DNA of 32,000 nucleotides from an uncultured Pseudobdellovibrionaceae bacterium (GTDB lineage Bacteria > Bdellovibrionota > FAC87 > UBA2466), in contig CAYNEF010000009.1 in assembly GCA_964396165.1 (NCBI GenBank), forward strand, positions 52,354 to 84,353. The letters are read 5' to 3'. The position numbers were made by a program, and so were the translations under genes. Position 1 is the first letter of the stretch. Each line of letters begins with the position of its first letter. The notes under the pieces were generated by a model that ran no database searches, had not been told where the DNA came from, and saw only the letters and a list, made by a program, of their open reading frames with translations. Positions 3,406 through 15,373 of this stretch are shown here, one piece after another.

Positions 3406-4056
3406 TTATTTTTTCCACTCACTCGAGAAAGCTGTTTTTCCTTCAGGAATTTGGGGATAGTTCTGCTTTGCTTTCTCGGCAAAAGGTTTAAGTTGGTTCG
3501 TTTGTTCTAAATGCTTCAGGAAATCAAAGGCCTGATCGCTCGGAAATCTGCTTTCTTGCGTATTCCCGCGATCGCGACGCGCGCGGTTCATATACAGCTC
3601 CGGATCTTTATGAAACTCCGGATCGGAAAATACTCGTTGCTCTAGGAAATCTAATATTTTTTCTCTGCCCTCTCTGGAAGGAGGGTAACGTAAATCGGGT
3701 GATTTAAAATAGGCCCGGGCAGTTTTTCTCAATTCGGGGCTTTTTGCTTCAGCTTCCTCGATGGCTTTTGCTTCTTCTGCGGCTTTGCGTTCTTCCGCTT
3801 CTTTAACTTCTCTTTCTTTACGTTCTTTCTCCTCTCTGAGTTCCTTTTCTCTGGATGTTTTTATTGTATCAAGAATGTATTCGCGTACTCCATCACTTAC
3901 CCTGGCAGCTTTAAGATCTGCATCCACAGCGGCTAGTATTTTTAACAGTTCAGGACAGGTCTCATCTGCGTAACTTCTTGGAGTATAAAGAGTAACAAAC
4001 ATTAAAAGGCTGCAGGTGATGAGTTGAAGAAGAAGACTAAAATTTTTCTTAATCAT
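3406..4056 (-). CDS. Hypothetical secreted protein with a charged coiled-coil middle
   Basis: 216 aa ORF with a signal-peptide-like N terminus (MIKKNFSLLLQLITCSLLMFVTLYTPRSYA) followed by a Glu/Lys/Ala-rich coiled-coil-like segment. Confidence 0.7.
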   Translation of the reverse strand: MIKKNFSLLLQLITCSLLMFVTLYTPRSYADETCPELLKILAAVDADLKAARVSDGVREYILDTIKTSREKELREEKERKEREVKEAEERKAAEEAKAIEEAEAKSPELRKTARAYFKSPDLRYPPSREGREKILDFLEQRVFSDPEFHKDPELYMNRARRDRGNTQESRFPSDQAFDFLKHLEQTNQLKPFAEKAKQNYPQIPEGKTAFSSEWKK

Positions 4057-4065
4057 GATGCATCC

Positions 4066-4407
4066 TTAATTATTAGGTGCGCCGGCGTTGATCCAACTTG
4101 CGATGGCTGCAAGTTGAGCGACTGATGGCACAGTTCCATCTTTGGGCATTCTACCAGAATTGATTGCAGTATAGAGGGGACTTGTTGCGGCACTTCCACT
4201 GACCACTGCCTGCATGGTGCCGGCGTAACTCTCAAAACTATACCCACCTGAGGTGCCGTGGCAGCCGGTACAACCAGGAGTTAAAATATTTTGTGAAATC
4301 GAGCTGTAGGTTGCCGTGACCGCGACTGATTGGTCAATCGTGGAGCCGCTTTTAGAGCAAGAAGAAAGTAAGATTGCCGCAAGAAGTAAGATACAGGTCT
4401 TTGTCAT
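4066..4407 (-). CDS. Small c-type cytochrome-like lipoprotein
   Basis: 113 aa with a lipobox-like LLAAILLSSC and a single CxxCH haem motif (PGCTGCHG), followed by SGRMPKDGTVPSVAQLAAIASWINAGAP, typical of small cytochrome c domains. Confidence 0.8.
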   Translation of the reverse strand: MTKTCILLLAAILLSSCSKSGSTIDQSVAVTATYSSISQNILTPGCTGCHGTSGGYSFESYAGTMQAVVSGSAATSPLYTAINSGRMPKDGTVPSVAQLAAIASWINAGAPNN

Positions 4408-10987: not shown

Positions 10988-11007
10988 TTTAGTAATCGTT
11001 TAATAAG

Positions 11008-11039
11008 AAGGCGATCTGGGAAACCAGATCGCCTTTTTT
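11008..11039 (+). terminator. Rho-independent terminator of the porin-like gene
   Basis: AAGGCGATCTGG-GAAA-CCAGATCGCCTT followed by Ts: a 12-bp perfect stem with a GNRA tetraloop, about 20 bp after the stop. Confidence 0.95.
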
Positions 11040-11194
11040 ATTTTGCCCTCTCGTTTATCTCATCCATTTTCCGCTCTTGGGGCACAACCTACGACAAAAC
11101 ATTCTATCGTGGCCAGAGCGTCCTACTAGGGTGCTTTCTACACAAGCATAGATTCTGTAAATTGCTTTGATAATAGGAGTTCCGAATAGCAAAA

Positions 11195-11268
11195 ACGGGT
11201 GGCACATGCATTTCTAGTGATGGCGCGCCAAGAGCGACAGCACTAGAAATGCGTGTGACAGGACCCGT
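11195..11268 (+). ncRNA. Structured element 1, family 1 (RNA or DNA level unknown)
   Basis: ACGGGT | GG | CACATGCATTTCTAGTG | ATGGCGCGCCAAGAGCGACAG | CACTAGAAATGCGTGTG | ACAGG | ACCCGT. It has a 6-bp outer stem, an asymmetric GG/ACAGG internal loop, a 17-bp inner stem (one G.U) and a 21-nt loop. Confidence 0.6.
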
Positions 11269-11384
11269 GTTTCTCGCTCATACACTAATTACGCGCAGCA
11301 GTATAACGCGATACTCCATTGTGAAAAAACAATCATTTTTTATTCTAGTAAATATGCCGATAAGCCTTAGAGGTAATACGGCCC

Positions 11385-13325
11385 ATGTCCTTGTCACACG
11401 ACGTACATTCCAGACATACATTAGTGGTCTTTAAACAGACACCAGACTTGAAAAAAGTCGAAATCTCGCACGACTGGAATACAGCTGTCATTCAATCTCA
11501 CGATCAACTCCTTGCTTGCGTAGATCGCGCATACAAAAACGCACAAAGAATCGTCGTAATCGTATCCGAACTGGATTACGAAAAAACCCGCGTACTACTT
11601 AACTTAAGAATGCAGCGGGAAAACTCTGTTGCCTACGGCCTTCTTGTCGTCGCAAAAGATCCTACTAAATTCATGGAAAAAGAAGGCGGCCCCGCCGAGC
11701 TTCTCGATGCAGTAGGGGATAAAGAAGCCAGAAAAAATATTCAGATATCCCTTCTACGTGCCGTGCGATTTCTTTCACTTTCTGAATCAAAAGGAATGCA
11801 AAAAATCGGACAACGCACACTGGAGAGAATGAACGAAATATTTATCGATCTCTCTGCCGAAAGAAACTCAGAAAAACTACTCGGAAAAATTTTAACGAAA
11901 ACGATGGAAGTCACCAATGCGAAATCCGGTGCGCTTTTCATGGTGCAGGAAACAGATGGCGAAATGTATTTCCGCCTGAAAATCACAGCAGAACAAACTA
12001 AAGAACCTGTCTTTCAAAACACAACGTTAAGAGTTGTAGAAAACAGTGTATGTGGTTATGTCGCGTTGACAGGAAAAATCCATAATATTTCCGACATCAG
12101 CAATATGCGGGCAGGTTCCATCCCACAAATGCACCGTCAGTATGATTATGATTACAACGGCACAGCTGTTTGCATGGTTACGGTTCCCTTAAAAAATAGC
12201 AGACACGAAGTAATCGGCGTGTTGCAACTTGTAAATAAAAAAGACGAACGAGATGTTTCTGGAAATGGAATATGCCCATTCGAGGGAGAAGACGAAAGTA
12301 TTTTGATGTCTTTCGGAACACAAGCTGCCATCTGTTTGGAAAATGTGGATTTGTATGCGGACATCCAAAGACTGTTCGAAGGTTTTGTGAGAGCTTCCAT
12401 TACGGCCATCGAATCCAGAGATCCCAGCACGGGTGGTCACTCAGAACGTGTCGCTAAAATGTCTGTAGCTCTAGCACGCGCAACCACAGAAGTGGATATC
12501 GGCATTTACCGCTCTGTAAAATTTAAAGAAGAAGAAGTTCGAGAGCTCGAATACGCAGCGATGTTGCATGATTTCGGAAAAATCGGTGTACGTGAAGAAG
12601 TTCTCGTGAAAGCAAAAAAACTCTACGCCCACCAGCTCGAAGGAATTCAAGAGCGTATTAAAATTTGTAAAGCGGCTGCGAAAATCAATTATCTCGAAAA
12701 AAGATTGAGACAATCGGGAAATGATTTGGATTTAGAAAAAGACTACTTAAATAGAGTTGCTCAGATTGAAGGATATAAAGATATTATCTTGCAGGCAAAT
12801 GAACCAACTATCCTCATGAATGAAAATATTCAGGTTCTGGATAAGATAAGATCTGAGCAATTGCTGCTGCCTGATGGATCTAATATCGCTCTTCTTACAG
12901 AAGAGGAATTTAAAGCTCTATCTGTAACTAAGGGCTCGTTGACTGAGAATGAACGTGTGGAAATCGAATCACATGTTCGACATACGTATCAATTCTTAAA
13001 AATGATTCCTTGGACTAAGGATTTTAAACACCTGACTGAAATTGCTTACTGCCATCATGAGAAGTTGGATGGCACCGGGTATCCACGCGGTTTAGTTGCG
13101 CATGAAATTCCTTTGCAGTCTAAGATCATGACTATTGCAGATATATTTGATGCTTTAACGGCATCTGATCGTTGGTACAAAGAAGCTGTACCTACTGAAC
13201 GTGCGATTGAGATTCTTTTTAAAGAAGTAGAAAAAGGTAAGATTGATCCTGTCCTCTTTGAGCTGTTCGTAGCTAAGAAAATATTTGAAATTGCCCAGCC
13301 GAAAACTCTTCACCAAGTCGCCTAA
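11385..13325 (+). CDS. GAF domain + HD-GYP domain protein (putative c-di-GMP phosphodiesterase)
   Basis: 646 aa. The GAF-like region is around aa 160-310 (...GYVALTGKIHNISD...VMSFGTQAAICLENVDLYADIQRLFE). HD-GYP motifs are ESRDPSTGGHSERVA, MLHDFGKIGVREEVL and YCHHEKLDGTGYPRG. The exact start codon is uncertain. Confidence 0.9.
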   Translation: MSLSHDVHSRHTLVVFKQTPDLKKVEISHDWNTAVIQSHDQLLACVDRAYKNAQRIVVIVSELDYEKTRVLLNLRMQRENSVAYGLLVVAKDPTKFMEKEGGPAELLDAVGDKEARKNIQISLLRAVRFLSLSESKGMQKIGQRTLERMNEIFIDLSAERNSEKLLGKILTKTMEVTNAKSGALFMVQETDGEMYFRLKITAEQTKEPVFQNTTLRVVENSVCGYVALTGKIHNISDISNMRAGSIPQMHRQYDYDYNGTAVCMVTVPLKNSRHEVIGVLQLVNKKDERDVSGNGICPFEGEDESILMSFGTQAAICLENVDLYADIQRLFEGFVRASITAIESRDPSTGGHSERVAKMSVALARATTEVDIGIYRSVKFKEEEVRELEYAAMLHDFGKIGVREEVLVKAKKLYAHQLEGIQERIKICKAAAKINYLEKRLRQSGNDLDLEKDYLNRVAQIEGYKDIILQANEPTILMNENIQVLDKIRSEQLLLPDGSNIALLTEEEFKALSVTKGSLTENERVEIESHVRHTYQFLKMIPWTKDFKHLTEIAYCHHEKLDGTGYPRGLVAHEIPLQSKIMTIADIFDALTASDRWYKEAVPTERAIEILFKEVEKGKIDPVLFELFVAKKIFEIAQPKTLHQVA

Positions 13326-13359
13326 AAATAATTTTTAAGGATGAGATTTTAAGATGAAC

Positions 13360-13433
13360 ACGGGTCCTGTCACCTGCGAATGGGATGCTGTCGCTCTTGG
13401 CGCGCCATCACCCCATCCACAGGCGCCACCCGT
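13360..13433 (-). ncRNA. Structured element 2, family 1, inverted relative to element 1
   Basis: The reverse complement reads ACGGGT | GG | CGCCTGTGGATGGGGTG | ATGGCGCGCCAAGAGCGACAG | CATCCCATTCGCAGGTG | ACAGG | ACCCGT. It has the same architecture and length (74 nt) as element 1, and all 17 inner pairs form (4 G.U). Confidence 0.6.
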
Positions 13434-13545
13434 TCCCCGTTTTTTTCAATCCATAGTTCTAACGGAAAAAAAACAGTTCTATAAAGTCAGCGGAATGTAG
13501 CAGAGTGGTTCTATTAAACTGATTTATAAAATTTGTAAGTGAGAT

Positions 13546-13723
13546 CCTTTCAGGAAGAGGAGTGTGGGTGGCGCCTTCGTTAAAACCAGTGGCCCCGGGT
13601 AGTGATAAGCAAACTAGCAATGAAAACGAAACTTGCAGAAAGATCTCACAGCGAAGATCCAGTCCAAGGGGAGCATCTGGTTACCACGCAGGTGACAGGA
13701 CCCGCACTCCTCTTCCTGAAAGG
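13546..13723 (+). ncRNA. Structured element 3, enlarged relative of elements 1 and 2
   Basis: Outer arms are CCTTTCAGGAAGAGGAGTGTGGGT (13546-13569) and ACCCGCACTCCTCTTCCTGAAAGG (13700-13723): 24 bp, 23 Watson-Crick plus 1 G.U. The same GG (13570-13571)/ACAGG (13695-13699) internal loop follows, then a mostly paired inner stem (13572-13589 with 13677-13694, 14 of 18 paired). Confidence 0.55.
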
Positions 13724-14014
13724 TTTGCAATAATCAATACCCTATACAATTTTTTTCTCACACAAGTACTCTACGCAATGAGCAATCAAGTACTTAAAAT
13801 ATTCCCAAGCACACCTGGCATTTTTTTCCCGCACGAGAGGGAAATTCTTGCCGATCTTTCTGTCAATACATTGACAAGATTTAGGAACAATCATACAATT
13901 AAAGAGTAATATCCTTCTGTAAAAAATTAATTCCATAAAAAAAGTAGAATAGAAAAAAGCCACAAAGAGTAAGTTATTCCTTACTGTATTGTGAGTTTGT
14001 GTTTAAGGAGCCGA

Positions 14015-15373
14015 ATGAATCGCGTTCTTATTTATGAACCTGACGTTGAATTAGGTACCAGATGCAAAGAATTACTGGAACAAAACAATCTGTGGGTCAT
14101 ACACGAGTGGGACCTTAATAACGCCTTATCGTTATACGCAAAACAGTTATTTCATGTTTGTGTTTGGCGCTGCGATACAGAAGACGATTTGAAAATAATT
14201 CCCACGTTGAGAAATACGCGTATCGAAGCGGGAATTATTATCAGCAGCAATAAAACCGATTCTGATTTCATCGTGAAGACAATGCGCGAAGGCGGTTCTC
14301 ACTATTGGAATAGACAGAGTGAGCTAACGAAACTTCAATCAGCTGTAAAAGAAACTCTTTCTAAAATCGTGGATGATACGGAAACCATCGATTTTACCTT
14401 TCCGTTTCAGGAATTTATTGGAAGACATCCCAAAATCATCGATATTTTTCAAACTATCAATAGCATTAAAGATACGGATTCTACCGTACTCATTACGGGT
14501 GAAAGCGGAACAGGGAAAGAAGTTGTTGCTTCTGCAATCCACAAGCTAAGCCCTCGTGGTAGATCGCAAATGGTGGCAATCAATTGCGGCGCCATTCCCG
14601 GAAGTTTGATTGAAAGTGAACTATTCGGTCATATGAAGGGCGCTTTTACAGGCGCAACTCATAATAGAATGGGACGATTTCAGATGGCAGGAAGTGGAAC
14701 GTTGTTTCTGGATGAAATAACGGATCTTCCTCTTGATTTGCAGGCTAAATTACTACGCGCCATACAAAACAAAACATTTGAGCCCGTTGGCAGTGCTGTC
14801 AGTCTCAATCTCGAAGCTCGCATTATTGCAGCGACAAACAAAGACTTGGAAATCGCTGTCGAAGACAAAAAATTCCGTGAAGATCTGTTCTACCGACTGA
14901 ATGTAATTCCCATTTATATTCCGCCTTTGAGAAATAGAAAATCGGATATTCCGCTTCTTGTGAAATCATTCATGGATAAGTTCAGCAAAGAACATAACAA
15001 GGTCTGTGAAGGAATATCCCAGGACGCCATGAGAACCTTAATGGAATACCAATGGCCGGGTAACGTAAGAGAGTTAGAAAACCTCATCGAACGAGTCATT
15101 GTACTGAAGAGAAGCGTCGGTGCAATCGAATTGAAAGACTTGCCCGTGCATTACTTTAAAAACGTCAGAATGGATCGGTATGTCGCAAATGTGGAGCTTC
15201 CAGACGAAGGTTTGGATTTCAACAATGCGGTAGATGAATTCGAAAACGAATTGATCATTCAGGCTTTACAGAAAACGGATGGCAACCGCAATAAAGCCGC
15301 ATCCTTGTTGAATTTGAATAGAACAACGCTTGTGGAGAAATTGAAGAGAAAGGGAATCAGATTGGCTGCTTAA
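14015..15373 (+). CDS. NtrC-family sigma54-dependent activator with degenerate receiver domain
   Basis: AAA+ motifs GESGTGKEVVASAIH, GAFTGATHNRMGRF, GSGTLFLDEITDLP and WPGNVRELENLIERV, plus a C-terminal Fis-type HTH (NRNKAASLLNLNRTTLVEKLKRKG). The start at 14015 is supported by AAGGAG. Confidence 0.93.
   Translation: MNRVLIYEPDVELGTRCKELLEQNNLWVIHEWDLNNALSLYAKQLFHVCVWRCDTEDDLKIIPTLRNTRIEAGIIISSNKTDSDFIVKTMREGGSHYWNRQSELTKLQSAVKETLSKIVDDTETIDFTFPFQEFIGRHPKIIDIFQTINSIKDTDSTVLITGESGTGKEVVASAIHKLSPRGRSQMVAINCGAIPGSLIESELFGHMKGAFTGATHNRMGRFQMAGSGTLFLDEITDLPLDLQAKLLRAIQNKTFEPVGSAVSLNLEARIIAATNKDLEIAVEDKKFREDLFYRLNVIPIYIPPLRNRKSDIPLLVKSFMDKFSKEHNKVCEGISQDAMRTLMEYQWPGNVRELENLIERVIVLKRSVGAIELKDLPVHYFKNVRMDRYVANVELPDEGLDFNNAVDEFENELIIQALQKTDGNRNKAASLLNLNRTTLVEKLKRKGIRLAA

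Follow-up and report, generated by a model that had tools for sequence, protein, structure and literature searches.

A stretch of 32,000 nucleotides (nt) from an uncultured Pseudobdellovibrionaceae bacterium (contig CAYNEF010000009.1), referred to in its entirety as the window, contains three copies (E1, E2, and E3) of a structured hairpin around a gene for a GAF/HD-GYP protein. These copies belong to a family that combines an invariant, asymmetric internal-loop core with hypervariable, complementary stems, and that is carried by metagenome-assembled genomes (MAGs) labelled as at least 12 bacterial phyla. With about as much confidence as doubt, we read the family as a single-strand-folding, palindromic insertion element that is low in copy number, spreads horizontally and hops locally, and carries in its core a putative enzyme recognition site.

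Three hairpin copies in the window

E1 (11191-11272, plus strand; core hairpin 11195-11268) and E2 (13356-13437, minus strand; core hairpin 13360-13433) lie on either side of the GAF/HD-GYP gene (11385-13325, plus strand; 646 amino acids; Pfam GAF, HD, and HD_5), which is context rather than part of the element; E2 begins 35 nt downstream of its stop codon. An earlier reading of this DNA from its letters alone (the sequence-only reading) had described both as 74-nt hairpins of the form ACGGGT-GG-(17)-ATGGCGCGCCAAGAGCGACAG-(17)-ACAGG-ACCCGT, and re-reading the sequence reproduced this form, the coordinates, and the opposed orientations exactly. In E1, the invariant halves ACGGGTGGCAC (11195-11205) and GTGACAGGACCCGT (11255-11268) enclose an A/T-rich middle stem of 17 bp and a conserved apical module (11220-11240); the middle stem of E2 is G/C-rich and includes several G.U pairs, while its base and apical module are those of E1. 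The two copies agree at 40 of 40 non-stem (loop and base) positions. Of the 17 pairs in each 17-bp stem, 11 are not the same in the two copies, 7 of them by changes on both sides and 4 by one-sided changes to or from G.U, and a recount bore out the full pairing claimed earlier: all 34 stem pairs are standard. The 21-mer at the apex occurs twice in the window, against 0.00 expected from 100 shuffles. Its identity in the two copies, as originally described, holds; however, it is not wholly the open loop it was taken for, as it forms a short CGC/GCG hairpin with a 7-nt loop.

Folding of these copies is strong and strand-dependent. On the strand in the ACAGG orientation, E1 folds as RNA at −43.5 kcal/mol (z −6.4), and with DNA parameters its z-score is −8.1. 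The RNA fold of E2 reaches −47.5 kcal/mol (z −5.1) on the minus (ACAGG) strand, as compared with −29.5 kcal/mol (z −1.2), which is shuffle level, on the plus strand. This strand asymmetry was repeated under DNA energy parameters.

While E1 and E2 are real, a third local copy had been overlooked. E3 (13546-13727, plus strand) is recognized by its shared core, its fold, and a covariance model. Its core halves are GGGTGGCGCC (13566-13575) and GTGACAGGACCCG (13692-13704), so that the GGGTGG...GTGACAGGACCCG core is combined with a 24-bp outer stem and is interrupted by an interior of approximately 120 nt; the first and last bases of its inner helix (P2) agree with those of E2 (CGCCT...CGCAGGTG). 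E3 folds at −84.1 kcal/mol (z −7.25). The covariance model (R1), built from distant members of the family and run across the window, scored E2 at 56.4 bits (E 5e-9), E1 at 53.1 bits (E 2e-8), and E3 at 36.3 bits over 13560-13709, with the interior counted as an insertion. These were its only matches: all three copies fall within 2.5 kb, and the remaining 29.5 kb are free of them. Past the porin terminator and ahead of E1, the interval 11072-11129 (no strand assigned) may preserve a degraded fourth copy: it matches the apical module weakly on both strands (GCCCCAAGAGCG, minus; GGCCAGAGCG, plus; local alignment scores of 12 and 8), has no R1 match, and is weak evidence for a relic.

A hairpin family with an invariant core

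Homologs were sought by scanning genome contigs, one genome per species across 185,579 bacterial and archaeal species, for exact matches to a pattern that contained only the 20 core bases (GGGTGGCRC, a gap of 26-56 nt, and GACAGGACCCG). Though the pattern did not require a fold, 112 of 128 genome matches (among the matches listed) place an outer helix (P1), a 2x5 internal loop, and P2 in the minimum-energy fold. The same was true of all 27 matches from a metagenome scan with a narrower pattern, as compared with 1 of 52 from viral contigs scanned with a looser, 17-base pattern; the viral matches are chance-like and high in G+C, and served as a negative control. The exact 21-mer of the E1/E2 apical module returned 0 matches in JGI metagenomes, so the subfamily of E1 and E2 was not found there. 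Model R1, which recovers E1 to E3, also finds further copies in the family loci.

The consensus core reads (R)CGGGU-GG-CRC in its 5' half and GYG-ACAGG-ACCCG(Y) in its 3' half, with about 20 nt invariant. Single hairpins measure 60-90 nt, and now and then about 180 nt. P1 comprises about 10 bp, of which the inner CGGGU/ACCCG is invariant and the outer part co-varies; the internal loop sets GG opposite ACAGG; and P2 begins with C-G, R-Y, and C-G pairs, after which it is variable and admits large insertions, as in E3. The second P2 pair is G.U in 15 of 65 sequences in one alignment (A1) and in 12 of 17 in another (A4), where it is the commonest type. Several tip modules recur across phyla, among them CGCAG-CUU-GCGAG(G/C)AC, to which the E1/E2 apical module (GCGCGCCAAGAGCGACAGCAC) aligns, and GGGAC-CGGCC-GNA-GGCCG-CACGCC.

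Pairing is retained across this diversity. Among 65 diverse members, 86% of alignment cells are paired, as compared with 35-45% when partners are slid, and 205 cells carry double changes, as compared with 83±6 in shuffles (0 of 500 shuffles reached the observed value). A subfamily of 17 sequences is paired at 92.9% of its cells; its base and tip do not change, whereas a single position of its middle stem can have as many as 6 pair types. Over both alignments, slid-partner controls were 33-45% paired, against 86-93% observed. Constant modules around a hypervariable, complementary stem recur within this subfamily, and the divergence of the E1 and E2 stems with pairing kept is therefore a property of the whole family. 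The homologs, and covariation beyond both slid and shuffled controls, bear out the sequence-only reading as to a fold that is kept while the stems diverge. However, a selected RNA fold does not follow from covariation alone when the sequence is a DNA palindrome, because selection at each transposition, or template switching from arm to arm, gives the same pattern.

The family does not appear in Rfam 15: at gathering score, the window returned no match and 18 family loci returned only one tRNA, and at E values up to 10, within 11000-14100, the elements gave only a 15.6-bit chance match to mir-219. No description of the hairpin was found in a literature search.

Strand and molecule

The strand proposed earlier as the folded one, that with ACAGG (the sense strand), is upheld by the RNA z-scores, by the DNA parameters, and by the family as a whole, in which, of 125 informative cases, 89 give the sense strand the better fold and 36 its complement (p 6e-6). 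The G.U at the second P2 pair becomes an A.C mismatch on the opposite strand. Together, the sense-strand advantage and the frequency of G.U argue for the folding of one single strand, with which both RNA and single-strand DNA are compatible. Between these, several features favor DNA: the orientation of the element relative to transcription is inconsistent, copies are embedded in open reading frames (ORFs), and most tips close with a C(GNA)G triloop (27) or a non-GNRA C(GNNA)G loop, which we take to be extra-stable mini-hairpin loops in DNA rather than stable RNA tetraloops. Additionally, the strand with the sense sequence is locally richer in C in 85 loci and in G in 57 (L059-L205, 8-kb pieces; p ~0.02), a weak bias that is confounded with gene orientation; a replication cause and a gene-orientation cause are inseparable here, and we draw no conclusion from it.

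Taxonomic distribution and genomic context

Taxonomy, taken from the titles of the MAG records, places carriers in at least 12 bacterial phyla. The titles name Solirubrobacterales, Thermoleophilaceae, and Conexibacter; Acidimicrobiia, Ilumatobacteraceae, Microthrixaceae, and other Actinomycetota; and Planctomycetales, Myxococcales, Polyangia, Latescibacteria, Gemmatimonadetes, Rokubacteria, Melainabacteria, and a gammaproteobacterium, as well as Saccharibacteria, Patescibacteria, Omnitrophota, Chloroflexia, and Acidobacteria. Complete chromosomes hold 1-4 loci with the exact pattern among the matches listed (4 in OZ241886.1, 3 in OY970173.1, and 1 in several). Copies are locally clustered: in 12 of 100 8-kb loci the model identified 13 extra copies, and two copies elsewhere bracket single genes for a ParA-like protein, NuoD, and DnaE.

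The genes that flank the element are unrelated housekeeping genes (those for ParA-like protein, FtsZ, NuoD, DnaE, LepA, and penicillin-binding protein), and all-against-all clustering of 5116 flanking ORFs returned only housekeeping or generic families and no recurrent partner. Homology in the flanks is confined to orthologous loci, with no shared flank or larger parent element. Gene calls in the high-GC loci are crude. Copies occur in both orientations relative to transcription; one, within an operon, is antisense and sits 1 nt past a stop codon and 16 nt short of the next start. On these crude calls, copies tend modestly to have their 3' side against a convergent stop codon, and E2 is so placed.

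At least three copies lie in frame within ORFs, in addition to those in spacers, as is also the case for Rickettsia palindromic elements (RPEs). In a Melainabacteria MAG of 31% GC, a 66% GC copy (L090) interrupts a conserved 730-amino-acid membrane protein; homologs align on both sides of it, and the loop that carries it is longer by 11-13 residues. A second copy (L146) lies within an ABC-F gene just past the second Walker A motif, and a third (L105) in the linker of an S8 peptidase. Separately, the FtsZ ORF of two Solirubrobacterales MAGs (L068, 1022-2530, and L126) appears to have a conserved, low-complexity N-terminal extension of approximately 140 amino acids (MREGPLSDLF...), which may hold an antisense copy of the element; its start codon is uncertain.

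Orthologous loci in related genomes

In one relative (L002; 92% HD-GYP identity), elements occupy the same three sites in the same orientations as E1 to E3. The core is 100% identical in 3 of 3 orthologous pairs, amid spacers that barely align. The interiors are unalignable to those of the window: E2 and its counterpart E2' compare at shuffle level, E2' could be aligned neither as an inverted nor as a diverged E2 (scores at shuffle level in both orientations), and E3' is only about 50 nt. Within the relative, the three copies are alike (CCTTTCAGTGAC...), and in the window E1 and E2 share the apical module and E2 and E3 the base of P2. Interiors, alike among neighbors and unlike between orthologs, are thus homogenized between neighboring copies and replaced from one genome to the other.

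In relatives at 83% and 64% protein identity, the HD-GYP gene is again followed by the sigma-54 activator gene, and no element is present. The promoter-proximal blocks conserved for these two genes fall outside the extra DNA that bears the elements. This comparison of element-free relatives and conserved blocks indicates that E1 to E3 are insertions into two spacers and do not belong to the ancestral regulation of the HD-GYP gene. It also speaks against 11195-13433 as a mobile unit, since the gene order is present without the elements.

The hairpins coincide with breaks in short-read assemblies. One Logan contig (L001) corresponds to window positions 11219-13409, running exactly from the tip of E1 to the tip of E2, and another starts inside E1' (L002, 1-48); the hairpins thus fragment de Bruijn assemblies. 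Look-ups by exact protein, made to extend the source contig, yielded short contigs only.

Comparison with known systems

The element is of the palindromic-repeat kind. However, it did not pass as a member of the repetitive extragenic palindromic (REP) system with its associated tyrosine transposase (RAYT), of the class of miniature transposable elements with inverted repeats (MITEs), or of attC sites, and it has no Rfam match; we have therefore filed it under no named family. By analogy, its behavior appears most like that of REP/REPIN and RPE sequences, and its architecture like that of recombination sites that fold as single strands (attC).

Like REPs and REPINs, the copies are short imperfect palindromes, rich in G+C, that occupy spacers close to the ends of genes, face either way, and sometimes cluster locally; REPs and REPINs are likewise thought to form single-strand DNA hairpins, with strand-marking asymmetry and co-evolving arms. 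However, REPs measure 20-40 nt (REPINs about 100 nt) and number tens to hundreds per genome, unlike the 1-4 loci found here among the matches listed; the GTAG-type head that lies outside the REP stem is absent from the flanks of the element; no RAYT (Y1 HUH) was seen among the genes of the window and about 23 ORFs from the flanks of copies; and REPs keep to particular lineages and descend mostly vertically, whereas the core of this element is identical over at least 12 phyla. RPEs, compared here by behavior, are selfish palindromes found in spacers and in frame within genes, where the added peptide is tolerated. They are about 100-150 bp and confined to Rickettsia, whereas the hosts here are of unrelated phyla; RPEs are not known to have an invariant internal-loop core with hypervariable stems.

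The resemblance to attC and to the CTX-phage attP(+) site lies in the retention of structure over sequence, in two helical boxes with an unpaired, asymmetric spacer and a terminal structure of variable length, in unpaired bases that set strand choice, and in sites just past stop codons. However, the R/L box consensus (RYYYAAC/GTTRRRY) is absent, the element instead ending in (R)CGGGT...ACCCG(Y), and nearby no cassette arrays or integrase (IntI) were seen, but housekeeping neighbors, both orientations, and ORF copies. MITEs (Correia/NEMIS, ERIC, RUP, BOX) are similarly small, non-autonomous, long-hairpin insertions that may become terminators or processing sites and occasionally lie inside ORFs; they nevertheless have terminal inverted repeats that match an insertion sequence (IS) and target-site duplications, whereas here there are none above control, nor any known parent. 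Finally, mobile GC clusters and hairpin repeats of mitochondria are G+C-rich hairpins that invade A+T-rich genomes, also in frame (cf. L090); as these are organellar and have no core conserved across lineages, they serve as an analogy only.

A proposed mobile hairpin and its rivals

As an insertion element, E1, E2, and E3 would be three local copies of one low-copy, horizontally spread palindromic family, for which we infer mobility at the level of DNA. The core would be recognized on the folded single strand by a trans-acting, structure-specific DNA enzyme, by analogy with RAYTs and IS200/IS605 TnpA, which act on the ends of REPs and ISs, and with IntI, which acts on attC. Such an enzyme would copy the hairpin mostly to nearby sites. 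Arms would stay complementary because only foldable copies propagate, because of arm-to-arm template switching, or both; neighboring copies would homogenize each other's interiors; and the outer P1, the middle of P2, and the tip would be free to vary while pairing holds, with tips drawn from a few recurring modules. Inserted copies would mostly be passengers in intergenic DNA or in permissive protein loops. In the window, they would have landed in the two spacers around the HD-GYP gene, where the complement of E2, with the T-run that follows it, may have come to terminate HD-GYP transcription.

Several observations weigh against this account. The convincing carriers are all MAGs, though from several assemblers and platforms, with no convincing match in an isolate; the few isolate-genome matches (Streptomyces, Frankia, and others) have no fold and are chance-like. 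A copy number of 1-4 loci per chromosome (among the matches listed) is far below that of REPs or MITEs. We know of no precedent among non-autonomous repeats for an identical 20-nt core in at least 12 phyla, though the scans demanded an intact core, making its conservation partly an ascertainment effect. Among 151 copies, target-site duplications, sought as the longest flanking direct repeats, did not exceed a shifted control, the flanks of the core being complementary rather than direct repeats. No conserved motif was found outside P1: at distances greater than 6-7 nt from the core, in both directions, information drops to about 0, and the 6-7 nt next to the core are the co-varying outer P1. 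Pfam and NCBIfam scans of the window genes and about 23 flanking ORFs identified no transposase, RAYT, or recombinase near the copies. Additionally, a perfect orthologous core amid diverged spacers looks like constraint in place, and hence function, unless it arose by conversion or re-insertion.

The negative results for an enzyme and for duplications, together with the low copy number, the perfect orthologous core, and the phyletic breadth, keep a more novel reading alive, which we regard as possible though doubtful. In this case the helix, 2x5 loop, and helix of the core would represent a new class of nucleic-acid element without a described counterpart, present in at least 12 phyla including Patescibacteria: either hairpin DNA moved by a novel structure-specific enzyme or by universal host machinery, or a catalytic or self-mobilizing RNA or DNA in which two fixed modules frame variable stems, complementary in every case, as free 'barcodes'. 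In either form it would not be one more REP or MITE. A family of functional RNAs, for example new ribozymes that cleave themselves or modules that bind a protein or ligand, with the internal loop as active or recognition center and the variable helices as spacers, seems to us unlikely. Ribozymes and aptamers are commonly built in this way, from an invariant internal-loop core and co-varying helices, with optional large insertions in P2; the fold depends on the strand, and G.U is common at the second pair of P2; orthologous cores are perfect while their surroundings diverge; and the low copy number and clustering over many phyla presumably recall the distributions of bacterial hammerhead and twister ribozymes. 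However, Rfam offers no matching family, even with E values relaxed to 10, no gene family is associated with the element, and the tips are GNA or non-GNRA GNNA loops rather than stable RNA tetraloops. The sense strand is antisense to the surrounding transcription unit as often as sense, including in tight operons, and where sense copies lie in frame in conserved ORFs, self-cleavage would destroy the mRNA. The suggestion of a structured RNA family in the sequence-only reading is thus sustained as to the family, its covariation, and its absence from Rfam, and weakened as to RNA by the occurrence of either orientation and by the in-frame copies. Resemblances of the 3' core to known structures (the RNase P P4 strand, the sarcin-ricin loop, domain IV of the signal recognition particle RNA, k-turns, and CsrA sites) were considered and rejected, as the structural contexts differ and Rfam gives them no support.

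Roles in cis can be judged from the position of E2 and from the HD-GYP locus itself. REP, ERIC, and Correia sequences include copies for which domestication has been proposed, and the hairpin, perhaps of mobile origin, might similarly act in either orientation as a terminator or as a stabilizer of mRNA 3' ends; we consider this quite unlikely as an account of the family. On the crude gene calls, copies do lie very near stop codons, the 3' side most often facing a convergent gene end at a distance of about 30 nt or less. E2 and E2' stand 35 and 27 nt past the end of the HD-GYP gene; in the mRNA sense, seven consecutive T (13440-13446, plus strand) follow the E2 complement after a gap of 6 nt, and in the relative TTTTT follows the E2' complement directly; and the scan saw no other terminator for the HD-GYP gene. 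The E2 complement and its T-run may serve as that gene's terminator. However, the complement of E2 on the mRNA strand folds only at shuffle level, and the simple scan called only the porin terminator (11005-11038), and not E2. High-GC members have no U-tracts, ORF-embedded copies cannot terminate, and neither termination nor stabilization needs an invariant 20-nt core with an asymmetric loop across phyla. Very improbable is the earlier proposal that E1 and E2 regulate the HD-GYP gene as a pair, or that they bound it as the inverted termini of a small cassette able to move or invert. Their inverted placement around one gene speaks for it; single genes are bracketed elsewhere too, but mostly by direct pairs and around unrelated housekeeping genes. 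The order HD-GYP gene to sigma-54 activator gene is ancestral and element-free in relatives, every element is a self-contained hairpin, and E3 lies outside the pair, all of which count against a cassette. Against a dedicated regulatory pair stand the number of copies, which is three, the element-free orthologs at 83% and 64%, and the unrelated neighbors elsewhere.

Other features of the window

The names of the nearest protein homologs suggest a MAG of Bdellovibrionota type. Apart from the elements, the window is ordinary housekeeping DNA and contains carB, greA, recG, a short-chain dehydrogenase/reductase (SDR) gene, genes for a dicarboxylate symporter and an OmpL-like porin, the GAF/HD-GYP and sigma-54 activator genes, mla, and flagellar genes; scans with Pfam and NCBIfam found no transposase or recombinase among them. 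An inverted repeat without mismatches (TGTCAAT-AC-ATTGACA, 13861-13876) lies upstream of the sigma-54 activator gene and overlaps the −35 box of a near-consensus promoter (TTGACA-17-TACAAT, 11 of 12 bases; 13871-13899). Both are kept in the 92% and 83% relatives, and the block 13861-13899 is probably the operator and promoter of this gene. Between greA and recG lie two small ORFs of 216 and 113 amino acids (3406-4407, minus strand), where in the 83% relative (L003) greA directly adjoins recG; the 113-amino-acid ORF resembles, below threshold, the families of the LIC11213 lipoprotein and of cytochrome c551, and the 216-amino-acid ORF has no match. In the 64% relative (L005, 8459-8984), this conserved neighborhood has received a further small insertion, a BrnT/BrnA toxin-antitoxin pair that separates recG from the SDR gene.

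Implications

In practical terms, model R1 can be used to annotate the element. Gene callers translate through the hairpins, and the hairpins break short-read assemblies, as seen for the two Logan contigs that end inside them. Should the element prove to be a functional RNA, it would constitute a widespread class absent from Rfam 15. If it is mobile, a structured core of 20 nt has spread through at least 12 phyla at few copies per genome and is tolerated inside essential-looking genes, and the family would offer a tractable entry to a possibly new mechanism of transposition or recombination.

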